Origin: Chitinophaga sp.
GTDB taxonomy: Bacteria; Bacteroidota; Bacteroidia; Chitinophagales; Chitinophagaceae
Assembly (NCBI GenBank): GCA_039593235.1
Contig: JBCNPS010000001.1
Span: forward strand, 1-46,344
DNA length: 46,344 nucleotides
Direction of reading: 5' to 3'
The position numbers and the translations under genes are program-made. The first letter of the stretch is position 1. The number at the start of each line of letters is the position of its first letter. The notes beneath the pieces were generated by a model that saw only the letters and a list, made by a program, of their open reading frames with translations, was not told the DNA's origin and did not search any database. This document shows, one piece after another, positions 31,287 to 42,830 of this stretch.

Positions 31287-31371
31287 GGAGAGTTGGCAGA
31301 GCGGTCGATTGCGGCAGTCTTGAAAACTGTTGACTGTAACAGGTCCCGGGGTTCGAATCCCTGACTCTCCG
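31287..31371 (+). tRNA. tRNA-Ser, anticodon TGA
   Basis: GGAGAGT/ACTCTCC acceptor stem, D arm TGGCAGAGCGG, anticodon arm GCAGT-CT TGA AA-ACTGT, long variable arm, GTTCGAATCC T loop and G discriminator. Confidence 0.96.
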
Positions 31372-31379
31372 CAAGGAAT

Positions 31380-31417
31380 AGAGCCTTTAGACATTGTCTG
31401 AAGGCTTTGTTATTTTT
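31380..31417 (+). terminator. Terminator after tRNA-Ser
   Basis: AGAGCCTTTAGAC / GTCTGAAGGCTTT stem followed by GTTATTTTT. Confidence 0.7.
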
Positions 31418-31449
31418 GGGAAATAGCGACTGTCTTTTCGTAAATGATT

Positions 31450-31492
31450 TTGACTGTAACAGGTCCCGGGGTTCGAATCCCTGACTCTCCGC
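31450..31492 (+). repeat. Exact 43-bp duplication of the tRNA-Ser 3' half (att-like site)
   Basis: TTGACTGTAACAGGTCCCGGGGTTCGAATCCCTGACTCTCCGC is identical to 31330-31372, 120 bp upstream. Confidence 0.92.
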
Positions 31493-31498
31493 TAGAAA

Positions 31499-31645: not shown

Positions 31646-32194
31646 TTAGAGTTTGGCCTTTGCATTATTCATTAGTGATAACAATTGAATAATATCCCCG
31701 TCCTCCATAAAGACATAGGACTTCTCATCAAATCGCTCTACCTTTAAAAAGGTGGACCATTGTTTTTTTGAATAAAAACAACCTGCCTGGAAGCCGCCGC
31801 GGCTTTTATATTGAATTTCGGTATATATTTCCGGGGTGGTCGGTATTATCTTATCTTTTATAATGTTCAAAGATTTAATTAGTGCATCAACCTCATCCAT
31901 ATCAAGCATGCCTATTTTTGTATCAGATGAATATGCTCCAGAGTACGCATATTCAAAACGCACTGCCTTGGTAGTTTCTCCGCCAATTAAGTCTGTGAAT
32001 TGCGCAACTTGAATCTGGCAGCCCTTCAGTGAGCCAACATCTATAAATTGTTTTTGTATTAGAGAACCAGATTTGTTTGAAAAAAGTTCTGCTTTGCTCT
32101 TTTGTTCTTTTAGATCTGTATCCGGTTTCGCTGGTTGAGAACAGGCCGAACAGAATGGGGTAATAAATGCTAAAATTAAAATTACTCTTTTCAT
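31646..32194 (-). CDS. Hypothetical lipoprotein
   Basis: MKRVILILAFITPFCSAC lipoprotein-like signal (ATG 32194), last gene of the co-oriented run. Confidence 0.7.
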   Translation of the reverse strand: MKRVILILAFITPFCSACSQPAKPDTDLKEQKSKAELFSNKSGSLIQKQFIDVGSLKGCQIQVAQFTDLIGGETTKAVRFEYAYSGAYSSDTKIGMLDMDEVDALIKSLNIIKDKIIPTTPEIYTEIQYKSRGGFQAGCFYSKKQWSTFLKVERFDEKSYVFMEDGDIIQLLSLMNNAKAKL

Positions 32195-32236
32195 AGATGA
32201 TTGAGGTTTATTTAGAAACAAAAGTGAAAATGAAAG

Positions 32237-33337
32237 CTACTGATCCTGATCTTTTACCTGAACTTTTTCCGAATCATACCAATCGACAGTTTTATGAAGT
32301 ATTTCTTCAAATTTAAAGAGGTCATCAACAGTTAGAATCTCTGTCTTCGTTTCCTTCTTTTGCCCGTCAAAAGTGCCAATATATTTTCGTGAACTGTTAA
32401 AATACAATCTACATATCGTTTTTCGATTATTGTCATCCAGTAGTATTGCAAAATAGGATTGAGCATCCCGATACGCTATTCTGGAAGGTTTTATTCTTTG
32501 GCGGAGAATTGTTTTTACAATCATATAGCCTTCCTTTTCCTCCTCGGTGGTTTCAATCACTGAACCCTTTTCCTCGATGTTTGTTGTCACTAATTCCTTT
32601 TCGGGATCAGATTGCTCTGTATCATTTTCTTTTTTCAGCGCAGATTTAAGCCTTTCTGTTATCAGATCATTGATGTATTGTTGTATTGACTTCTTTGTTA
32701 GCGCACCGAACTGCTCAACAACTTTTGAAGTTAACATTCCTCTGTATATCTGCTTGGAAAATAGTTTGATCAACCCTTCAGAGGGATTTTGAAACTCAAC
32801 ATTTATCAGCGTTTTAAGCTCATTCATATATTTTAGGTCGCTCGCGGTGGTTTGAATGTTCTCTATATTGAAATACGACTTGTGAAATTTTTTTAATTCT
32901 TCGATCTGGTTGTCTTTTATATCCGTAACATTAAATTCAAAGAATGGTTTTTCATCCATTTTATTCTGCTCTGCAAGATCTGTATAGAACCGGTAAATTA
33001 TTCCATTGGATAATAGACCGAATTTAGCAGTTGTAGTATGGAAATACCGGAAAAGCTGGGAGTTGTGCGGGTCCAGGCTTTCTCCCCAATGCTTACATTC
33101 GATGAGTATAGAAGGTTTGCCTTCCTTCAGGATCGCATAATCGACTTTTTCGCCTTTCTTGATCCCTATATCAGCAATAAACTCCGGCATTACTTCAAAT
33201 GGGTCAAATACATCGTAGCCCAGGACTTTAATGAAGGGCATGATAAAAGCATTCTTAGTAGCTTCTTCTGTTTGAATCTGGTTTTTAAGCTTTTCGACTT
33301 TGTCGCCGAAGAGTTTAATTTCAGCTTTAAAATCCAT
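32237..33337 (-). CDS. Stand-alone HsdR-N-terminal-like PD-(D/E)XK endonuclease (COG4748 type)
   Basis: TEEATKNAFIMPF..LGYDVFDP.EV.PE, GEKVDYAI...LIECK, SQLFRYF and NG..YRFYTDL...NKMDEKPF. No helicase motifs. Confidence 0.85.
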   Translation of the reverse strand: MDFKAEIKLFGDKVEKLKNQIQTEEATKNAFIMPFIKVLGYDVFDPFEVMPEFIADIGIKKGEKVDYAILKEGKPSILIECKHWGESLDPHNSQLFRYFHTTTAKFGLLSNGIIYRFYTDLAEQNKMDEKPFFEFNVTDIKDNQIEELKKFHKSYFNIENIQTTASDLKYMNELKTLINVEFQNPSEGLIKLFSKQIYRGMLTSKVVEQFGALTKKSIQQYINDLITERLKSALKKENDTEQSDPEKELVTTNIEEKGSVIETTEEEKEGYMIVKTILRQRIKPSRIAYRDAQSYFAILLDDNNRKTICRLYFNSSRKYIGTFDGQKKETKTEILTVDDLFKFEEILHKTVDWYDSEKVQVKDQDQ

Positions 33338-33370
33338 AGAATTTTTTTGATATTGATGTTGTCAGAAATT

Positions 33371-34366
33371 TTATCCTTCGAATCCTTTTCCAAGGGCATC
33401 AAGCCGTCGCATCTGTAAATTCATATGATGCAGTACAACCTTTTCGTAATCATTAGATCTGTCGCCCAGTTTACTGAATAGTACGAGCATCTCTATAAAC
33501 AGGAAAAACAGAATCCACAGGATCCAGAAAACCAATGCAACATAAGATGCGGATAACATCTGCTTCATGATTGTTAACTCATCTAAAAATCCTGTACTCG
33601 CTTTCATTTCCTTTTCAATTGCAGGTTTGATGTGAAGCAAATCGTTTTCCTTTAGAGTTCTCTGTTGCCGCATAGCACCAATAGTGGAGTCAATGGACGG
33701 TAGCAATGCTATTTTGGGATTTGACACCAGTGTGGTTGCAACAACAACATCACTTATCGTCTTCCATACAGTTGTATCCTTGCCTGAAGATGTTACTGTT
33801 GACACAGGCATCCGCTTTGTTGCCGTTTGCGTGGTAGTGGCAGTTGTTGTTGGATGTTTGCTGATGTCCTCCACGTAATTATTTTTTTCCTGTTCTTTTT
33901 TATTAATCGCCGTGTCCAGTGTGGCGATCTGCTTTCTTAGTTCTTCAGTTTTGGAGGGCAATATCTTGTCTACTTTTTCCGATACATAGGAGATCTTTGC
34001 GATCTCAATGTCTTTTTCAAACAATATCTGATCAATGATCACAGCACCCAGAATAGACATCATGAAAGCCAGACATCCCCTGAAAATTAACAGCAGCCGG
34101 CCCGGATTTATGGATAGGACGATCTGCTTTTCAACCTGTACAATGATAACGGTTGAGAGAATGCCGGCCAACAAGCAACCCGGTAGGCTGAGTGACAGGT
34201 AACGATGAGCAAAAGTAAAACCGATAAAAAACCACAGAATGCAAACGATCAGCATGGCTGCGGTGTACTTTTTCACTGATTTAAAAGCAGCTTCGCTACA
34301 GTTCCGTAGGATGCTGTAGTTGTATCCGGTCATGAAGCAGCCGAAACGGATCCAGAGATGTTTCAT
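33371..34366 (-). CDS. Membrane protein with three N-terminal TM helices, coiled coil and C-terminal TM (DUF4407-like)
   Basis: Hydrophobic segments at about aa 35-55, 60-80 and 90-112, a heptad-rich soluble middle, and 'GFLDEL..M' before the final TM helix. Confidence 0.7.
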   Translation of the reverse strand: MKHLWIRFGCFMTGYNYSILRNCSEAAFKSVKKYTAAMLIVCILWFFIGFTFAHRYLSLSLPGCLLAGILSTVIIVQVEKQIVLSINPGRLLLIFRGCLAFMMSILGAVIIDQILFEKDIEIAKISYVSEKVDKILPSKTEELRKQIATLDTAINKKEQEKNNYVEDISKHPTTTATTTQTATKRMPVSTVTSSGKDTTVWKTISDVVVATTLVSNPKIALLPSIDSTIGAMRQQRTLKENDLLHIKPAIEKEMKASTGFLDELTIMKQMLSASYVALVFWILWILFFLFIEMLVLFSKLGDRSNDYEKVVLHHMNLQMRRLDALGKGFEG

Positions 34367-34377
34367 AGCACTCGGTT

Positions 34378-34944
34378 TTAAAAGTTTTTGTTCAGAATAA
34401 TGTGACTGGAAATTGCCGCAAGACCATTCCTGAATCCGCGCGTATAGCTGATAATAATGCCGTGTCCGACACCCTCGTTAATCTTTGCCTGCTCTTCGAT
34501 TTCTTTGACCTGCCTGATATGGCCTTCGGCAATTTCTTTTTTGACAGTAAGTTCTTCCACTGTATCTATCATTCCACTTCTGCTCCTGCTGGAGATGTGA
34601 AAGTTGATTTGGCGGATAAAGTCTTCGTAAAAGGTTTTTACCTTCCGGATAGATCTTTCCAGGTCATTCTTCAACGCGATCACATTTTGGTCCAGATGGG
34701 TAATGTCCGGATTTATCAAAGCATCGTTATATCCTTTAGATTCATAGTTCTTGTCGAGGAAATCGTATAAAAGATGTATCCCACCATTGAGTGGAGTAAT
34801 AGCCTTTCCGTCAGGCTGTTCTTTCGCCGGTGCGTCCTTTTCAATGAAAGTAGTTTCCGGAATATCGGGCATTGTATTTTCAGTTGCTATAGTGTGGGTA
34901 TGCCCATTTTGACGTTGCCGATTGAAAATGTTGAATAAGCTCAT
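34378..34944 (-). CDS. Hypothetical coiled-coil protein
   Basis: 188-aa ORF with 11-bp gaps to both neighbours; helical, with GYNDAL and SY.RGF.NG motifs. Confidence 0.75.
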   Translation of the reverse strand: MSLFNIFNRQRQNGHTHTIATENTMPDIPETTFIEKDAPAKEQPDGKAITPLNGGIHLLYDFLDKNYESKGYNDALINPDITHLDQNVIALKNDLERSIRKVKTFYEDFIRQINFHISSRSRSGMIDTVEELTVKKEIAEGHIRQVKEIEEQAKINEGVGHGIIISYTRGFRNGLAAISSHIILNKNF

Positions 34945-34955
34945 ACATATTTTTA

Positions 34956-35357
34956 TTAAATAGTGATTGTCGGCACTTTGTATTTATTATGTCCTTTGTT
35001 ATGACAGGACGCGCAGAGCGTGATGAGTAAATGACCGGGGTAATCCCAGGGCAGACGGAATTTTTGCTCGTTTGCTATAAAGTGGTATTGCCGGTGATGG
35101 ACCTGTAAGTCTTTATCGCTACGGCAATGAACACAACAATACATGTCGCGCTGCAGTATTTCCCTACGCCTCGCCTTCCAGTCGGGGTGAAATAAAAGCG
35201 AGCCATAACTGCCATGAGATTTAATATTTAGGAGGCCCTGCTCTTGAGATTTTGCGGGAGGTGATTTTGTAGGAATATCCTCCTGGATATATCTGCGGAA
35301 AAATTGATCTCCCTTAAACTGTAAGTATTTATGCGGCGCGACGTTTGAAGTTGCCAT
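34956..35357 (-). CDS. HNH endonuclease
   Basis: W..RR.EILQRD...CVHC...DLQVHH...LITLCASCHNKGH, a Zn-ribbon HNH signature. Confidence 0.85.
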   Translation of the reverse strand: MATSNVAPHKYLQFKGDQFFRRYIQEDIPTKSPPAKSQEQGLLNIKSHGSYGSLLFHPDWKARRREILQRDMYCCVHCRSDKDLQVHHRQYHFIANEQKFRLPWDYPGHLLITLCASCHNKGHNKYKVPTITI

Positions 35358-35405
35358 AATAACACAGGTTAGAGTTGTTGAAATATAGTCCTGGTCGCAG
35401 TCAAC

Positions 35406-35606
35406 TTATTGCTCCCACTTGCAAAGGGTCCTGGTTGCCATTGCTTTTTCAAGGGACATGCTGATGATTCGATGCTTACAATTACTTAGTCCACGGCAAT
35501 TCGAATTATAATGATATTTTGTAGCATTCTTGCTATCGCAGACATACACCGTTATTGGGTTACAGTAACTATAGCTTGTAAGTAGCCAGACATACAGGAG
35601 TTTCAT
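35406..35606 (-). CDS. Small exported Cys/His protein (Ada-type metal-binding-like motif)
   Basis: Hydrophobic N-terminus, then VYVC...KYH...CRGL.NC...SLEKA...RTLC. Confidence 0.65.
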   Translation of the reverse strand: MKLLYVWLLTSYSYCNPITVYVCDSKNATKYHYNSNCRGLSNCKHRIISMSLEKAMATRTLCKWEQ

Positions 35607-35656
35607 GGCTCTATTGATTCAGGAGACAAGGGGTACAAAGGAACTGGCATTATCGT

Positions 35657-35866
35657 TTAACTTGTATGACAGGGCCTGCAACAATGAAAACAGCCATTCG
35701 AGTTTTGATAGCGTTTCTTTGCTTCACGAACAGCCTCCTGGCAAGTTTCAAATTCTCCCAAATAAGTCCGGTTATACATCGTAGAAAAATACTCACAGGT
35801 AATGACGTGAACTTCATAATCACCGTTTAGCTGGCGGTTGTTGTTTACATAATACTTCTTTTTCAT
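35657..35866 (-). CDS. Small Cys/His-rich hypothetical protein
   Basis: YYVN.N.Q.NGDYEVH..TC...YLGEF.TC.EAV.EAK...NGC.HCC.PCHT; AT-rich start, first gene after the promoter. Confidence 0.75.
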   Translation of the reverse strand: MKKKYYVNNNRQLNGDYEVHVITCEYFSTMYNRTYLGEFETCQEAVREAKKRYQNSNGCFHCCRPCHTS

Positions 35867-35889
35867 AATGGTATTTTAGATTTATGAAA

Positions 35890-35933
35890 CAAAAGTATAT
35901 TTCATTAACATCCTTTTTTTATGGGAAACCGTA
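35890..35933 (-). promoter_or_regulatory. Effector-operon promoter: TACGGTTTCCCATA-N22-TACTTTTG
   Basis: Quasi-palindrome at 35920-35933 and Bacteroidota -7 box at 35890-35897. The same geometry recurs at 36690-36733. Confidence 0.7.
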
Positions 35934-35968
35934 ACCAGATGTTTTCTGTAGAAGTTTTTTTAAGACGC

Positions 35969-36634
35969 TTATATAGCGCCTAAATCCTTGCAATGAGCCA
36001 CCAATTGCTCGTTCTTGGTAAAGCCAAGGGCGTCTTTCATTTGGTTGAGCCTTTTTTCTATACTGCTTAAGCCAGACGGTTTTATCCCGTTGCGTTGAAG
36101 GTGCGCAGGTATGTCTTTCTGCAGCATTCCCTGTGCAAGCAGTGTTATGATCGTGATATCAAATTCCGAAAAAGAGTAGGCGTTCTTTTTATCGAACAAC
36201 TGCCTGATGTGATGTGGAAAATAGCGCCTGTGTTGGGCTATTTCATTGATGGCTTCTTTAAGTGAGCGGGCATCGTTCCGGGCTTTGAGAACAAAACCAT
36301 CTATGTCATACTTGTTATAAAGTTGGTCAATAATAGCTGGCCTGTTTTCTAACGAGAAGATCAGGATATTGAGATCGGGTTGTACTTCTCTGGCGGCGGC
36401 AATTAGATCCATACCATTGGATAGTTCCTGCTTATGACCATCCGGTTCAAAATACAGATCTGAAATCAGGAGGTCGAATGAACTACCTGCCTTAACCGCC
36501 TGTGTTATCTTATACAACGCATCATCGCAATAATAAGCATGTGCTATATCCATGACTGCGAGATCTTCCAGGGTTTTCTGCAGGGAAATATTGACGATTT
36601 CGTGATCTTCAGCAATAAGTACCTTTGTAATCAT
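35969..36634 (-). CDS. NarL/FixJ-type response regulator (REC + LuxR-like HTH)
   Basis: VLIAEDH, DLLISDL phosphoacceptor, ILIFS, GFVLK and C-terminal HTH (II.LLAQG..QKDI...SSIEKRL..MK..L). ATGA overlap with the kinase. Confidence 0.9.
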   Translation of the reverse strand: MITKVLIAEDHEIVNISLQKTLEDLAVMDIAHAYYCDDALYKITQAVKAGSSFDLLISDLYFEPDGHKQELSNGMDLIAAAREVQPDLNILIFSLENRPAIIDQLYNKYDIDGFVLKARNDARSLKEAINEIAQHRRYFPHHIRQLFDKKNAYSFSEFDITIITLLAQGMLQKDIPAHLQRNGIKPSGLSSIEKRLNQMKDALGFTKNEQLVAHCKDLGAI

Positions 36635-38307
36635 GAGGACTGAGCTATTGGGAAAGAAATGTGAATTTTTAATCCTTTAGCAGGATGTTCAAATGTATAT
36701 TGTCCGCCAATTTTTTTAATACGGTTTCCCATATTCTGCAGTCCGTTTCCATACTTAACTTGCGGAGAAATACCGATGCCATCATCTGTATAGAGAATTT
36801 GAACCTGGCCGTTCTGACCTTCAAATTTTAACATCACAGAATTGGCCTGGCTATGCTTTTTCATATTGATCATCAATTCCTGCAGGATATGTTCAACTTC
36901 TTGCTGTATCTGCGCATTGATCCGGCTCCAGAGCAGGGGACCATTGCCGAAGATCAGGACCTTGATATGTTCGGACCCAAAAGATCCTAACAAATCGTCA
37001 ATTTTAACATGAAAGGGAATCTTTGAGATGGTGGGGTTTTCATATGAGATATCGCGGGATCGCTCATACAGTACCTCAATCTTATCGATCAAATCCTCCT
37101 TGTCTAAAGATGCTTTATACTCAAGGTCTGTCATGATGCGGTACAATCCGTTTGCTACCACGTCATGCACCTTTTGGGAGGTTTTGAGTTGATGTTCCTG
37201 TATCGCCTGCCGGGATGCAAATTCTATCTGTTGCCGGCGCCTGCGATACCGGAGGATTAAAACAATTCCGGCAGTAATGAAGAACAGGATGGTTAGCGCC
37301 AATAGAAACCACTGTACCACCAGCTGGGTTTTCTTTTGTGCATTATCCTTTTGCAGCTGAAGATTGTCGGCTTTGTTTTTCGCGGCTTCATACCGGATTA
37401 ATGCGAATTGGTTCTTGGCTGTGTGCTTTGCTGTTTGGATACTATCCGTCAGGTATTGGTAACGGATAAAATAAGGTTTCAACAGATTGGTGGGGCTAAG
37501 CGTAATAAGCTTTGAAAGTGCTTCTACCTCGTCATCGGGACTATTCATTTCCCTGGCGATTTCGTATCTTTTCCTGGCATAATGCAATGCCGAATCAGGC
37601 AAGGAGAGCGAATAATAGTCCGACAGATGCGCATAGCTGGCGTTGAGCCCCCTGATGTCGTTCGAATCCTTACGGATTTGCAGCGCCTGTTGCAGCTCGG
37701 GCCCGGCAGGATAAGCGGAATCTTTCAACCACTTGGTTTTGGCATAGTTGGAAAGTACCCGGGCATACTCTTTTTTCTTGTCCTTACTCTTAGCCAGCAG
37801 GGATTTGTATAAATCGATAGCCTGATCATAGTCGCCTTTCTTCTGGTAAGTAAGGGCTATACTGTTTAAAGCAATGGTTTCGGCCTTCGGATGTTTTATA
37901 TATTTTAGCGCTTTACGATAATAGTCGATCGCTGCTTCATAGTTTTTAAGATTAAGACAAATATTGCCCAATTCATGGTAGTCAGAGCCCAGGCATTCCT
38001 GGTCTTCTTTTTTGTGTTCATCAAGATAAGTAAGGGATTTCAAGAGGCTTTCCTGCCCTCCATAATGGTCTCCCTCATATGCCTGGATGATGCCCATATA
38101 AGTATAGGCCATTGCAATTTCCAAACTATCTGTAGCGCCCGTTGCAACGAGATTAAAATAATAAAAGGCAGAGTCGTTATTTTTATTGAAGAATGACTCC
38201 CCTTTTTCCAGCCTGGGTGCAGAAATCTGTTGCGGAGACTCCCGGTTGGATGTACAGGCTAAAAAACTTCCGAGGAGTATGGGCAGGATGATGATTGAGG
38301 GACGCAC
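36631..38307 (-). CDS. TPR-repeat sensor histidine kinase with lipoprotein-type signal
   Basis: GTG start, FLAC lipobox, TPR repeats (YHELGNICLNLKNYEAAIDYYRKAL; LNSIALTYQKKGDYDQAIDLYK), one TM helix, H box KVHDVVANGL, ELMINMKKHS, DDGIG and GNGLQN. Confidence 0.9.
   Translation of the reverse strand: MRPSIIILPILLGSFLACTSNRESPQQISAPRLEKGESFFNKNNDSAFYYFNLVATGATDSLEIAMAYTYMGIIQAYEGDHYGGQESLLKSLTYLDEHKKEDQECLGSDYHELGNICLNLKNYEAAIDYYRKALKYIKHPKAETIALNSIALTYQKKGDYDQAIDLYKSLLAKSKDKKKEYARVLSNYAKTKWLKDSAYPAGPELQQALQIRKDSNDIRGLNASYAHLSDYYSLSLPDSALHYARKRYEIAREMNSPDDEVEALSKLITLSPTNLLKPYFIRYQYLTDSIQTAKHTAKNQFALIRYEAAKNKADNLQLQKDNAQKKTQLVVQWFLLALTILFFITAGIVLILRYRRRRQQIEFASRQAIQEHQLKTSQKVHDVVANGLYRIMTDLEYKASLDKEDLIDKIEVLYERSRDISYENPTISKIPFHVKIDDLLGSFGSEHIKVLIFGNGPLLWSRINAQIQQEVEHILQELMINMKKHSQANSVMLKFEGQNGQVQILYTDDGIGISPQVKYGNGLQNMGNRIKKIGGQYTFEHPAKGLKIHISFPIAQSS
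36690..36733 (-). promoter_or_regulatory. Intragenic promoter for the response regulator: TATGGGAAACCGTA-N22-TACATTTG
   Basis: Lies inside the kinase codons NMGNRI...YTFE. It has the same 14-mer (inverted) and the same 22-bp spacer as 35890-35933, and the box ends 55 bp before the response regulator ATG. Confidence 0.65.
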
Positions 38308-38374
38308 TAGGGATTATTTCTCTTAAAAGTATCAAATTTCTCAATTTTGAGGAATTATTAATTGACAGGTAACC

Positions 38375-38407
38375 AAAAAAAGTGAGGCAAGAGCCTTCTT
38401 GCCTCAC
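38375..38407 (-). terminator. Intrinsic terminator between the peptide gene and the kinase
   Basis: GTGAGGCAAGA / TCTTGCCTCAC perfect 11-bp stem followed on the minus strand by T7. Confidence 0.85.
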
Positions 38408-38419
38408 GTAGATTATATA

Positions 38420-38563
38420 TCAGGGTTTTCTTGGAGGAATTGTTCCGGTTTCGCCACCGGTATCATCCATAGTAGTAACCTGTTCGCCATTGTTGTGATT
38501 ACCGTTATTGGAATGGCTGGGGCATAAGAATGCCAGGAAAAAGCTAAATATGATATGAAACAT
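38420..38563 (-). CDS. Unannotated 47-aa exported peptide (putative signal precursor)
   Basis: MFHIIFSFFLAFLCPSHSNNGNHNNGEQVTTMDDTGGETGTIPPRKP*. A-rich Bacteroidota start context (AAAAAATAAAATT-ATG), upstream TATCTTTG box and a terminator just after the stop. Below the ORF-track cutoff. Confidence 0.8.
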   Translation of the reverse strand: MFHIIFSFFLAFLCPSHSNNGNHNNGEQVTTMDDTGGETGTIPPRKP

Positions 38564-38795
38564 AATTTTATTTTTTGAATGTTTAAGAAATAGGCTGCCA
38601 GTTGCCGGGCAGCCGGCAGCGGAGTTGAGAATCAGTGAAGAAGCGCTTCTTGCTTTTTAGGGAAGTGTGGGCGTGGATTACGGAAGCTGATGATCGCTTC
38701 CCAAGCCGGTAACCGGCTTCCGCTTTCTTTGCCCGGGTTGAATCGGTTCTGTACAGGGAGCCTCTTAGCTAAGGAGGCGTTACCCGATTGCAAAA

Positions 38796-38803
38796 CAAAG
38801 ATA
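38796..38803 (-). promoter_or_regulatory. -7 promoter box (TATCTTTG) for the peptide transcript
   Basis: Exact match to the Bacteroidota TAnnTTTG consensus. Confidence 0.55.
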
Positions 38804-38830
38804 GATCGGGCTAAATGGTTGATTTACATG

Positions 38831-38905
38831 TAATTCCAATAATTCCGATAATTCCAGGTATTCCATTTGTAATTCCGGGAATGCGGGTTTAATTCCGATT
38901 ATTCA
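38831..38905. repeat. TAATTCC direct-repeat cluster in the divergent promoter region
   Basis: TAATTCC at 38831, 38840, 38849, 38870 and 38890, with variants GTATTCC at 38858 and TTATTCA at 38899. The first four have a 9-bp period. Confidence 0.8.
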
Positions 38906-38922
38906 GTTCTATAATTTTACTT

Positions 38923-39897
38923 ATGGCGACATATTTTCCTGACTATCAGCAGCTGGTCATGCAGGCGTATGAACGAAAGAAGGCAAACAATACACTACCT
39001 CATGGCCTGATGCACCTTACCCCCGGGAAACTCAAAGACGAATGCGTAAAAAGATGTACAAGAGATGTAAACAGGCGGGATGAAAAGATTATCAGGGATT
39101 TTTGCGGGGATTTGAATGAATCAAAAAGCTGCCATGCTATCATGCAGCGATGCGATACGGATAAGTTCAGACCATTGGTGAATTATCTGAAAAGGAAATC
39201 TGAAAGTACAGATGAGAAGAATATCGAGCTCCTGGCCTGGCTAATCGACTTCTCCGGCCGGCCCTGGGAAATGGGAAAAACGATTTCCGGCGATGAGGAC
39301 AAAGGCCCGGCATTAAATGATGCCAGCACTTTAACAGAAAACCAGGCAGCGGCATCAAATTCCCCAGCCAGTCCAAGCTATAAACAGACTGAGAGTGAGA
39401 TAATTCCGGAAAATCCGGCAATTCCAGTTTTGATGGATAGCTCAACGGAAAAGAAAGGCGCAGGTGTTAAGGCCGCAGAAGCCAGTGGTCAAAAAAAATT
39501 TAGAGGGAGATCCGCCAAAACACTGGCAGCCGCGGTTATTTTATCGCTGGCTTTAGGAACAGGCGGCATGTGGTGGTGGAAAGATAAGCCAGGCTCCGGT
39601 GGTAACTGCATGTATTGGCTGGAAGATCATTATGAGTCCATAGCCTGTAACCAGAAAATACCTAATGCAAGGATCATTGCATTAGATACCTTGAAGTTGA
39701 AAAATTTCAGGAAGATAACCAGGCCGGACACCATTACCTACCAGGCCATAGGAAAGGTCTGGTATTCTAAAATTAATGGCAAACTGGAATACTATACTTC
39801 CCGGGGAGAGCATCCGGTGGTCTTTGACCATCAGCTGAAGCCAATTACCATCTATATTATCGATAAGTACATCCGGTCGGGCATGATCACGAAATAA
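38923..39897 (+). CDS. Single-pass membrane protein with helical (possibly HTH) cytoplasmic domain and Cys-containing periplasmic domain
   Basis: About 115-aa helical N-domain (FRPLVNYLKRK...NIELLAWLIDF), low-complexity linker, TM helix TLAAAVILSLALGTGGMWWW and C-domain starting CMYWLEDHYESIAC. Confidence 0.7.
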   Translation: MATYFPDYQQLVMQAYERKKANNTLPHGLMHLTPGKLKDECVKRCTRDVNRRDEKIIRDFCGDLNESKSCHAIMQRCDTDKFRPLVNYLKRKSESTDEKNIELLAWLIDFSGRPWEMGKTISGDEDKGPALNDASTLTENQAAASNSPASPSYKQTESEIIPENPAIPVLMDSSTEKKGAGVKAAEASGQKKFRGRSAKTLAAAVILSLALGTGGMWWWKDKPGSGGNCMYWLEDHYESIACNQKIPNARIIALDTLKLKNFRKITRPDTITYQAIGKVWYSKINGKLEYYTSRGEHPVVFDHQLKPITIYIIDKYIRSGMITK

Positions 39898-40875: not shown

Positions 40876-41025
40876 CCCTCCCGTATTCAGCTCCACATTA
40901 TTTTACCTGCTAACGCATTTTTGCTAACTTTATCTCTTACACGTTATGCTGTGTTGATGGGCGGAAATCTTTCCCACCTTTAATAACACCGGTTGCAACC
41001 AATATTTAAGAGAAAAGATAATTCA

Positions 41026-41910
41026 ATGGGTAATAACTTTTTTAAATATCTGAATACAGGTCCAATCGAGGAGAAATGGGGAATTTATGTAACTACGGTG
41101 GGGTATTCAAAAGTAACACCGAATGAACGTTATCCCAAAGAAGAACATCCCCAAAGCCATCAGCTTACATGGAACAGGGGAAGGATTCTGACGGACTATT
41201 ACATGATATTTATTTCTAAGGGAAAAGGAACGTTCTGTTCAGCATTAACCGAGCCGGTGGAAATTGAGGAGGGAACCTGTTTTTTTCTTTTCCCGGGAGT
41301 ATGGCATCGTTACAGGCCGGATATCCGCTCGGGATGGGAAGAATACTGGGTGGGCTTTCATGGGTACTATGTTGATCAACTGATGAAACAGGGCTTTTTT
41401 GATCCTGATCAGCCATGTCTCAAAACAGGGCTGGATAGAGATATGCTGGTATTATTTAAGAAGATGATTGATGTTGTAAATGCCTCGCTTGTAGGTTACT
41501 CACAACAGATTGCAGGTTTAACACTTCAGATACTCGGTTTGGTCAATACCATATCGCTCAGCAAACAATATGATCATAGCCCGCTGGAAAAGGCAATAAC
41601 GAAAGCAAAGTTCCTGCTACAGGAATCACTGGAGCATCCTGTAGATATCCCGGAACTTGCCCGGCAATTGCCTATGGGATATTCGGCATTCAGGAAGAAT
41701 TTCAAGGCAGTAACGGGGCTGTCGCCTAATCAATACCATTTAAATTTACGCATAGAAAGGGCAAAAGAACTGCTTGAATCAACATTGCTTAACGTGGAGG
41801 AAATCGCTGATCAAACTGGGTTCGACAGCATTTATTATTTCTCCAGGATCTTTAAGAAGAAGGTGGGCCTTTCTCCTAATACTTATCGTAAAACATTTGC
41901 CGTTGAATGA
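41026..41910 (+). CDS. AraC family transcriptional regulator
   Basis: Cupin domain (FPGVWHRYRP...GWEEYWVGF) plus double HTH (GLSPNQY...GFDSIYYFSRIFKK..GLSP..YR). Start at ATG 41026. Confidence 0.92.
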   Translation: MGNNFFKYLNTGPIEEKWGIYVTTVGYSKVTPNERYPKEEHPQSHQLTWNRGRILTDYYMIFISKGKGTFCSALTEPVEIEEGTCFFLFPGVWHRYRPDIRSGWEEYWVGFHGYYVDQLMKQGFFDPDQPCLKTGLDRDMLVLFKKMIDVVNASLVGYSQQIAGLTLQILGLVNTISLSKQYDHSPLEKAITKAKFLLQESLEHPVDIPELARQLPMGYSAFRKNFKAVTGLSPNQYHLNLRIERAKELLESTLLNVEEIADQTGFDSIYYFSRIFKKKVGLSPNTYRKTFAVE

Positions 41911-41936
41911 AACTCCGGTAAGTCTGTTTCATCGCC

Positions 41937-42830
41937 TTATTTGCCTTTTATCTTATCGCGGTATTCACCGGGCGATAACCCTGTTTTTGATTTAAAGAAC
42001 GTTACAAAATAGCTGGCAGACTCAAAGTTCAGGTGAAAAGCAATTTCCTTTACCGGTAATACCGTACTGGCCAGCAATTCTTTTGATTTCTGCAATTTTA
42101 TTTCAAGTTGATATTGGGCGGGCGAAAATCCTGTATACTGTTTAAATACTCTTCTGAACCAGGAATAGCCAATGTTTAGTGTTTTAGCGATGGATTCGGG
42201 AGTAACATCATCACCGGTTTTTTCGCGCATCATCATTCTTGCTTTATCAATCTGGGCGATGATGGCTTTATCCCTGAAAGAATTGTTTTTCTCAGCGTAA
42301 AAGATAAAACCCAACAACAGGCTGGTAATGCCGGCAAGTACCTGCTGGTAGGCCGTTTTCTGGTAGTTGGCTGTTTCAATACCCTGGTTGAACAAAGCCA
42401 CGATCTGTTCATTAAACCCTACATTATAGACCGGGCTTTTCCGGGAAAAGAAGAGATTACCGGTTAACTGTTTCATGTAACTGCCATTAAAACCTACCCA
42501 GTATTCATTCCATCCCTGGCCTTTAAGCGGCCGGTAGGTATGCCATTCCCCGGGAAACAGCAACAGGATAGTACCGGCAACCACTTTAGTTAGCTTGCAG
42601 CTTGCCGATTCAAATGAACCTTCTCCTTCTGTAATATACAGCAGGATGTATTCCTGCAACACCCTCCCGGTATTGGGACTGAACCAATATGCCGACGGGT
42701 GGCTTTTAGGAGGGTAGTCACTGTTGGGAGATATCACCTGGAAACCAATAGTAGTGGTGTATAATCCCCACAGTTCGTCTGTTTCATTTACTGTCAGGTA
42801 ATTGACGTTTTGATTCCTTTTATTTTTCAT
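41937..42830 (-). CDS. AraC family transcriptional regulator (paralogue of the convergent neighbour)
   Basis: FPGEWHTYRP...GWNEYWVGF and GFSPAQY...FESASYF..FFKSKTGLSP.EYR. Confidence 0.92.
   Translation of the reverse strand: MKNKRNQNVNYLTVNETDELWGLYTTTIGFQVISPNSDYPPKSHPSAYWFSPNTGRVLQEYILLYITEGEGSFESASCKLTKVVAGTILLLFPGEWHTYRPLKGQGWNEYWVGFNGSYMKQLTGNLFFSRKSPVYNVGFNEQIVALFNQGIETANYQKTAYQQVLAGITSLLLGFIFYAEKNNSFRDKAIIAQIDKARMMMREKTGDDVTPESIAKTLNIGYSWFRRVFKQYTGFSPAQYQLEIKLQKSKELLASTVLPVKEIAFHLNFESASYFVTFFKSKTGLSPGEYRDKIKGK

Follow-up and report, generated by a model that had tools for sequence, protein, structure and literature searches.

Histidine kinases with a periplasmic tetratricopeptide-repeat (TPR) sensor occur in Bacteroidota, FimS being the best-studied of them. 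RRNPP receptors (Rap, PlcR, NprR and AimR) are cytoplasmic, carry an N-terminal helix-turn-helix (HTH) or phosphatase effector, and have a processed peptide that is re-imported. Three-component peptide systems such as Agr and ComCDE have a LytTR regulator and a dedicated peptide exporter, and ToxR/CadC-like activators are membrane-anchored proteins with a winged-HTH N-domain that bind direct repeats at the target promoter; CpxP, NlpE and RcsF are further small-protein modulators of kinases. Here we describe a cassette at positions 31,646 to 39,897 of a 46,344-nt stretch of Chitinophaga sp. DNA (contig JBCNPS010000001.1; the whole stretch is hereafter the window), whose core consists of a membrane protein, a divergently encoded 47-aa peptide, a lipoprotein-type TPR histidine kinase and a NarL-type regulator. 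We propose, at a probability of roughly 0.45, that the cassette is an in-cell envelope relay controlling swappable stress- or defence-type genes. Acting at an array of 9-bp repeats, the membrane protein would start transcription of the peptide gene, a leader RNA would control peptide output, the exported peptide would bind the TPR groove of the kinase and activate it, and the regulator would bind a palindromic operator, thereby raising its own level and turning on the swappable genes.

Among the known arrangements closest to this core is ComQXPA of Bacillus subtilis (ComX, ComP, ComA), in which a peptide gene likewise precedes a DesK/HisKA_3-type kinase and a NarL-type regulator; the window kinase matched the UhpB, LiaS and DesK classes and the regulator matched RcsB. 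The cassette operator, TACGG-N4-CCGTA, is also near the ComA consensus TTGCGG-N4-CCGCAA given in PMC3793909, with the 4-nt spacer common to both. Neither the window peptide nor the conserved motif contains Trp, however, and the cassette lacks a ComQ prenyltransferase, resides in a Gram-negative host, uses a TPR sensor domain rather than a polytopic one, and adds an upstream membrane regulator and a structured leader. FimS-FimR of Porphyromonas gingivalis likewise contains a Bacteroidota kinase whose TPR sensor is periplasmic; its authors propose that the ligand is a polypeptide, and no signal is known for it (PMC11053733). The window kinase, at 43.7 bits against a cut-off of 600 for NCBIfam NF053520, is not FimS, and the cassette differs further by encoding a candidate ligand next door and by an output other than fimbriae. 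With the RRNPP receptors the cassette shares conserved Asn residues in a TPR groove in which the C-terminal stretch of a secreted propeptide encoded next to it is predicted to sit, together with a weak RNPP_C match in the kinase (22.7 bits, below the cut-off of 26.5). Its receptor is instead extracytoplasmic and fused to a C-terminal histidine kinase rather than to an N-terminal HTH or phosphatase, it needs no re-import, its output runs via a phosphorylated regulator, and its conserved core has neither protease nor permease.

Small envelope proteins that set the activity of a kinase in the same cell, namely SafA, UgtL and MgrB on PhoQ, offer a further likeness (PMC8534201), and SafA joins two systems via its periplasmic region. 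The cassette departs from them in that a linear motif is predicted in a TPR groove, instead of transmembrane (TM) or PDC contacts, and in that the upstream controller is a membrane one-component protein. This protein is laid out much like ToxR/CadC, with one TM segment between a cytoplasmic helical N-domain and an extracytoplasmic C-domain and with direct repeats at the promoter next to its gene, although it has no winged-HTH match and neither domain is assigned. Unlike in Agr and ComCDE, the regulator is NarL-type and the core holds no exporter. On the features compared, the cassette appears to work like ComQXPA or SafA-PhoQ and falls outside RRNPP, ComQXPA and FimS-FimR. A search of the open-access literature, supplements lying outside its scope, returned no description of this system.

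The initial annotation had grouped these genes into one circuit, and a neighbourhood survey confirmed that the four core genes occur together. The core is formed by the 324-aa bitopic membrane protein (38923..39897, plus strand) and, on the minus strand, by the 47-aa export-type peptide (38420..38563), the 558-aa sensor kinase (36631..38307) and the 221-aa regulator (35969..36634); every reading frame of the initial annotation was recovered in place. The best named homologues come from Chitinophaga. Among the best 80 of 221 relatives from a GTDB scan with the membrane-protein alignment, peptide, kinase and regulator were all present in 69 loci. The 11 incomplete loci comprise five interrupted by contig ends and six true orphans, three of which share their genome with a complete cassette (L041/L087, L044/L073 and L102/L067). 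Two orphans (L041:9880-10000 and L044:6216-6336) carry a kinase 3′-end remnant fused to the last repeat, and they look like deletions of peptide, kinase and regulator, with the full copy elsewhere in the genome.

As an independent anchor, the kinase alignment was run against 400 genomes of the phylum and matched 33, the window's own genome not counted, in families f1 and f26–f28, whose gene content suggests Flavobacteriaceae, Sphingobacteriaceae and Weeksellaceae. In the kinase-anchored control, 43 of 45 matches were retrieved and yielded 46 kinase open reading frames. Peptide, leader and membrane gene stood together for 22 of these kinases (24 counting two filter misses), all three were absent for 17, and the remainder were partial. 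At the genus level, the membrane gene, the regulator and the exact operator-promoter were found in the same 14 of 36 genomes and in none of the other 22. By these sequence comparisons the cassette is present in several Bacteroidota families, and its co-occurrence and layout are consistent features of the core. Beside these loci, three (L137, L138 and L142) have two or three TPR kinases in tandem before one regulator, with degenerate G-boxes in the later copies and without peptide, leader or membrane gene. In two others (L133 and L139), a peptide-less kinase-regulator pair lies directly 3′ of ribosomal protein genes (L35/L20-like by sequence), and a full cassette is present elsewhere in the genome.

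The peptides combine a hydrophobic N-terminus and a variable low-complexity linker with a conserved C-terminal motif, DTGGETG-x-[IVL]-PP (by residue, DTGGETG-T/H/Q-I/V/L-PP), which is the predicted kinase ligand. Downstream of the window peptide gene is an intrinsic terminator (38374..38407, with narrower bounds of 38382-38407, minus strand) formed by a hairpin and a T-run, and a similar hairpin with T-run lies 3′ of the peptide gene in the 13 homologous loci displayed. The hydrophobic N-terminus and the terminator agree with the earlier description of a divergent exported-peptide gene with its own terminator. The kinase retains its H-box (H381), N-box and G-boxes, and a HATPase_c domain was found. 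Because a lipobox cysteine (Cys18) is present in 64 of 64 homologues and a TM segment spans residues 335–351, the TPRs are placed outside the cytoplasm. The kinase and regulator reading frames overlap by 4 nt, in keeping with the annotated coupling of a TPR kinase to a NarL-type regulator.

Modelling the complex proposed by the initial annotation, with TPR residues 26–312 and peptide residues 15–47, placed the C-terminal motif in the groove. The interface score ipSAE was 0.89, 0.88 and 0.89 in three runs, compared with 0.01–0.02 for the controls; the mark applied to this score is reached by 116 of 157 solved pairs and 2 of 215 mismatched pairs and is only roughly valid for alignments made here. 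The runs had at least 71% of contacts in common, with a predicted local confidence (pLDDT) of 55–56 for the partner. Confident contacts came only from peptide residues 33–47, on kinase residues N148, R183, N187 and N222, which are 95–100% conserved. Across 64 peptide-kinase pairs, six of the top 10 corrected covarying pairs fell on the interface against 0.8 expected, and eight of the top 20 against 1.6 expected. When changes were placed on a tree derived from the regions outside the TPRs, 10 joint changes versus 16 separate ones were needed at positions 38/186, and 19 versus 30 at positions 39/118. This model, backed by the co-change, makes it likely that the peptide binds the TPR groove of the kinase; that binding activates rather than inhibits the kinase is the direction we lean towards.

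The same binding model and layout are compatible with a peptide that acts as an inhibitory accessory ligand, in the manner of MgrB or CpxP; the regulon would then fire once the peptide is lost through a leaky envelope or degraded by proteases. MgrB on PhoQ is a known case of a small partner that inhibits its kinase (PMC8534201), and a small periplasmic peptide would make a good leak reporter. We consider this inhibitory arrangement, which together with signalling between cells is the main rival of the relay, unlikely, as MgrB-type partners are, in the same source, induced by their own regulator, and the window's clade has no operator ahead of the peptide promoter. Moreover, a dedicated promoter array and a leader of such length and structure point to a product made on demand rather than constitutively.

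A peptide, or its C-terminal fragment, might alternatively leave the cell by surface export, vesicles or lysis and activate the kinases of neighbours as a quorum or alarm signal. Many peptides of family f26 have a clear lipobox followed by acidic residues, resembling the lipoprotein export signal as outlined in PMC5080379. The near-ComA operator and the ComP/ComA-like classes of kinase and regulator also fit such signalling, as does the co-change of peptide and kinase, and in some lineages an operator precedes the membrane gene (13 promoters), by which an autoinduction loop could form. Nevertheless, the peptide motif is nearly invariant across families, which is not so for the signal motif of pherotype systems, and the core contains no exporter, protease or importer. 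Sec export would put the peptide in the compartment of its own receptor, the operator is missing ahead of the peptide in the window's clade, and a Cys near the signal (residues 9–20) occurs in only 44 of 70 peptides. Signalling between cells, including the quorum option of the initial annotation, is therefore judged improbable, and less likely than an in-cell relay.

The regulator, closest to RcsB, has the receiver residues D59, S94 and K117. An operator-promoter with the pattern WTACGG-N4-CCGTAW (degenerate form TAYGG-N4-CCRTA), followed exactly 22 nt on by TAnnTTTG, lies on the minus strand at two places, namely before the regulator, within the 3′ end of the kinase gene (36690..36733, where it is dual-coded), and before the cargo genes (35890..35933). 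The shared operator-promoter of the initial annotation is thus real at both sites, and it tracks the regulator in 14 of the 36 genus genomes. The window's genome has no exact site beyond these two. With at most one mismatch, the operator was found 218 times in the 80 loci, compared with 29 in one shuffle. The kinase's own copy is present by construction, and each of the 14 genomes has at least one further site; a reversed-pattern control in the 36 genomes gave one match.

Dual coding was assessed in the 102 of 113 kinases with a parsable motif, 11 being left out. The operator was present with at most one mismatch in 86 of the 102, and 95 had an exact −7 box at the 22-nt distance. Within the kinase operator, ACG encoded the Thr in 76 of 77 cases, compared with 13% elsewhere, and CGT encoded the Arg in 86 of 102, compared with 15% elsewhere. 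Where the operator is inverted, the kinase motif T-V-S-R replaces T-G/E-N-R; since the residues flip with the orientation of the operator, the DNA function appears to dictate them. The window kinase has Met526 where most relatives have Thr (36720-36733), with one operator base changed; family f26 and cargo promoters often carry the same variant. At the level of sequence, both the operator-promoter and its association with the regulator are established. From the class of the regulator and the position of the site over the −33 region, we infer that the regulator very probably binds the operator and activates transcription, and the promoter within the kinase 3′ end likely provides positive autoregulation.

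Ahead of the peptide gene we identified two elements absent from the initial annotation, a leader and a set of direct repeats. The leader-peptide transcript would start from the Bacteroidota −7 element TATCTTTG (38796..38803, minus strand; TAnnTT[T/C]G), and this box occurs 190–290 nt ahead of the peptide start in 63 of 70 loci; the consensus TAnnTTTG is described in PMC9723704. A sigma-70 promoter scan remained at chance level (21 versus 22.3), as expected for a Bacteroidota host. The conserved leader itself occupies about 230 nt (38564..38793, minus strand) and is likely a structured RNA. On the same strand it comprises a P1 helix (38742-38789), a long stem (38669-38734), a predicted pseudoknot (38659-38703), a self-complementary hairpin (38636-38653) and a final GC-rich hairpin (38593-38614).

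A structure of seven helices including the pseudoknot, built by hand on the same 42-sequence alignment that was used for scoring, contains 45 pairs with 86% of cells paired. Two-sided change was observed in 34 of the 45 pairs, a number reached in none of 500 shuffles, and slid controls paired at 35–47%. An unbiased mutual-information scan ranked several of the hand-built pairs near the top, and a crude search recovered the pseudoknot pairing (at least six pairs) in 36 of 46 sequences. A covariance model of the leader matched 47 rows among 70 sources, with E values up to 0.005, directly 5′ of the peptide, on the peptide strand and in all families sampled. The model found one copy in each of five whole genomes and had no match in the six orphan loci. 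Rfam release 15 gave only chance rows in the window (E 3–9) and none at the gathering score in six homologous loci; the table of 64 structured 5′ regions from F. psychrophilum (PMC9723704) could hold a homologue.

The leader likely acts either as a gate on peptide production or as the source of a small RNA; the candidates for its nature are a riboswitch, a protein-binding RNA and such a released RNA. Several of its loops are self-complementary, some remaining so after a change of letters (GCGC to GGCC, AGCT to GATC), which hints at dimerisation or protein binding. The T-run of the final hairpin is weak, mostly four or five T of eight, so attenuation is possible only. It is extremely unlikely that the genes are mere co-inherited neighbours, the peptide being no ligand and the leader a repeat feature at the DNA level. 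Wobble pairs that do not fix the leader strand, several palindromic leader elements and the 17 kinases without a peptide in cis would fit such neighbours; the all-or-none co-occurrence despite variable flanks, the complex score with its controls, the co-change at the interface and the conserved promoter 5′ of the leader all speak against them.

Between the membrane gene and the peptide promoter lie direct repeats with a 9-bp period (38830..38900), whose ATTCC cores start at 38833, 38842, 38851, 38860, 38872 and 38892 and which form a candidate site for the membrane protein. At least three ATTCC were present in 76 of 102 upstream regions, compared with 0.21 expected, with a spacing of 9 dominant, and autocorrelation peaked at lag 9 in 88 upstream regions; the orphan loci lack these repeats. 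The membrane protein consists of a helical N-domain (residues 1–110), a disordered linker, one TM segment (200–216) and a conserved, beta-rich extracytoplasmic C-domain with a CMYW motif. Its family, of about 1,800 clusters at 50% identity, had no family or fold match in Pfam, NCBIfam, a PDB sequence search, the ESM Atlas or fold searches with the whole model and the N-domain, although such blank fold searches do not establish a new fold. Divergent members gave N-domain matches to HTH_28 (E 0.008) and a transcriptional regulator (E 0.23). The N-domain is likely DNA-binding. The membrane anchoring asserted by the initial annotation is borne out by the TM segment, and the putative DNA-binding role that it assigned found no profile or fold match in its support.

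In four loci (L118–L120 and L141), a GACA-type repeat unit accompanies a divergent N-domain homologue, and the operator sites are kept. Because the repeat unit changes with the N-domain while the operator does not, the membrane protein is favoured over the regulator as the repeat binder, a co-change that amounts to two or three lineages only. On this pattern the membrane protein probably reads the 9-bp repeats.

Several observations weigh against the proposed relay. As a whole, the predicted peptide-kinase interface is no better conserved than the rest of the TPR region (0.67 versus 0.65, p 0.32) and so lends no support; the changes at positions 41/111 (15 joint versus 17 separate) mostly follow the tree, and a few peptide motif registers in the tree analysis are probably mis-anchored. 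The complex model and the covariation are not independent because both were fed by the same homologue families, and kin inflate both. The leader structure was scored on the alignment it was hand-built on; RNAalifold alone returned 17 pairs, the window leader is not unusually stable on the peptide strand (z −1.17, against −2.36 for the opposite strand), and the wobble counts (G-U 95, A-C 76) do not fix its strand. Folded alone with a pLDDT of 88, the membrane-protein N-domain had a best fold match of Z 4.4, which is non-significant, and XRE/POU rows reached a Z of 2.5–3.1 at an rmsd of 3.5–4.3. The core of the 9-bp repeat resembles half of the operator, for which reason the regulator could be the repeat binder. 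To these are added the 17 of 46 kinases that have no peptide in cis, the window cargo, which had no PADLOC match and nothing better than E 0.016, and, in the L160 operon described below, Shango genes that lie 364 nt beyond the first gene behind the promoter.

The initial annotation had drawn the chain as running from an envelope sensor through peptide, kinase and regulator to effectors. Its core part stands and survives the refuting check set for it, in that the genes co-occur, binding is predicted and the operator tracks the regulator; the effector operon at its end turned out not to be fixed. If the relay operates as proposed, the cassette would make the ligand question of TPR kinases directly testable, as it offers a 15-residue candidate ligand, predicted contacts, a defined operator and a reporter ready for use. 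With it come an uncatalogued RNA motif of about 230 nt and a large membrane-regulator family without assignment, and it presents a clean case of a promoter that dictates codons and residues inside a kinase gene. The operator further serves as a hook for finding uncharacterised co-regulated genes; several of these have Ter, Shango and nuclease genes as neighbours and may provide new, inducible defence functions.

Seven co-directional cargo genes, separated by 11–50 nt, follow the second operator-promoter on the minus strand; window proteins were annotated with Pfam, NCBIfam, PADLOC and PHROGs. In order from the promoter, they encode a 69-aa Cys/His-rich protein (phrog_4298, a family without assigned function; 35657..35866; in 41 of 69 core loci), a 66-aa Cys-rich protein (35406..35606; 46 of 69), a 133-aa HNH endonuclease-like protein (34956..35357; PHROG E 8.5e-13; 26 of 69) and a 188-aa protein without a family match, o188 (34378..34944; 26 of 69). 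These are followed by a DUF4407 membrane protein with four TM segments (33371..34366; 27 of 69), an HSDR_N endonuclease resembling the N-terminus of type I restriction R subunits (phrog_4225; 32237..33337; 29 of 69), whose gene often has its own operator-promoter, and a lipoprotein-like protein that is a rare add-on (31646..32221; 3 of 69). The genes of the annotated seven-gene nuclease and membrane operon are present as described, although they are not a fixed part of the cassette: in 33 of 69 core loci, HNH, o188, DUF4407 and HSDR_N are all missing. A fixed effector operon was rejected, as the cargo is variable and the six genes from the 69-aa protein to HSDR_N are complete in 17 of 80 loci. 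DUF4407 appears only in tables in PMC9603813 and PMC10719396.

Walking 239 operator-promoters gave recurring families behind them, namely DUF4236, TerB, TerD, vWA, tubulin-like, thermonuclease, EEP nuclease, DUF3892, DUF6232 and DUF6804, and their scan also took in a PLD-domain protein from L027. Six operator sites remote from the cassette were examined. Two precede DUF4236 genes, one a DUF4407 operon and one a TerD-vWA-PP2C-kinase operon; of the remaining two, one precedes a zinc-ribbon-like membrane protein followed by SngA-B-C and terD, and one has no clear target. Judged from the cargo, an output in defence or envelope stress is slightly the better guess.

Among individual loci, at three (L163, L090 and L114) the operator-promoter leads into a Ter-type operon that includes genes for vWA, PP2C and Ser/Thr kinase proteins. 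This triad resembles TerY-P, a call that PADLOC did not make. A recurring, uncharacterised operon with a tubulin/FtsZ-like protein stands behind the operator-promoter in Pedobacter, Mucilaginibacter and Hufsiella (L082, L084, L097, L111 and L112). At L160 (G033:C25:98000-106000), the operator-promoter is followed by a zinc-ribbon-like membrane protein, a complete Shango set (SngA, SngB and SngC at E 3e-34, 1e-166 and 1e-196, respectively) and terD; the preprint on Shango describes an anti-phage system that contains TerB and may keep watch over the membrane (bioRxiv 10.1101/2022.05.11.491447). In the same genome, L159 (G033:C20:230500-238500) has an operator-promoter without a clear target within a prophage-like region containing methyltransferase and replication-type genes. 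A far broader scheme can be imagined, a phylum-spanning alarm in which a new class of membrane sensor releases the peptide via a pseudoknotted, possibly self-dimerising RNA switch and the TPR kinases of neighbours pre-arm Ter, nuclease and anti-phage genes; we regard it as quite unlikely.

The cassette block has a GC content of 41.4% against 47.2% genome-wide, in line with its earlier description as AT-rich, and none of its 11 genes has a close paralogue in the window's genome (86% complete). A tRNA-Ser(TGA) gene (31287-31372) and a copy of its 3′ half (31450-31498) lie next to the block on the plus strand (31287..31498 in all), as context and not as a constant part. Both copies are on one side of the block and hence are not flanking attachment (att) sites. 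A tRNA-flanked island was rejected on this ground and because the cassettes of relatives lie at other distances from the tRNA. With a tRNA in only 12 of 120 loci, the annotated tRNA linkage proved incidental. In close relatives, tRNA-Ser and 3′-half duplicates are scattered around the cassette (for example, in G004:C8 near 349900, 356100 and 424200). The block is covered by DNA contigs of three sequencing runs, and none of the contigs listed for those runs bridges the tRNA duplication junction (31287-31498).

These features bear on whether the cassette controls a mobile element in an arbitrium-like manner, the cargo being passenger DNA, a possibility already raised in the initial annotation that received little support here and that we hold to be very unlikely. 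Its patchy presence in the genus (14 of 36 genomes), lower GC, nearby tRNA-Ser remnants, flanks that vary by genome and two cargo genes matching phage families would suit such an element. However, the core had no relative in viral-contig, phage-genome or plasmid collections, tRNA genes accompany few loci, no integrase or transfer gene was recognisable among recurring neighbour clusters (judged by eye, with no scan), and the operator also stands ahead of unlinked chromosomal operons. The cassette looks like a horizontally moved unit in plastic regions, where the surrounding genes vary from genome to genome, rather than a self-mobile element. Beyond the cassette, two convergent AraC-family regulators lie beside a TIM-barrel gene (40993-42830), and downstream of them is a long gene truncated by the end of the contig; the group is probably a sugar-use locus unrelated to the cassette.

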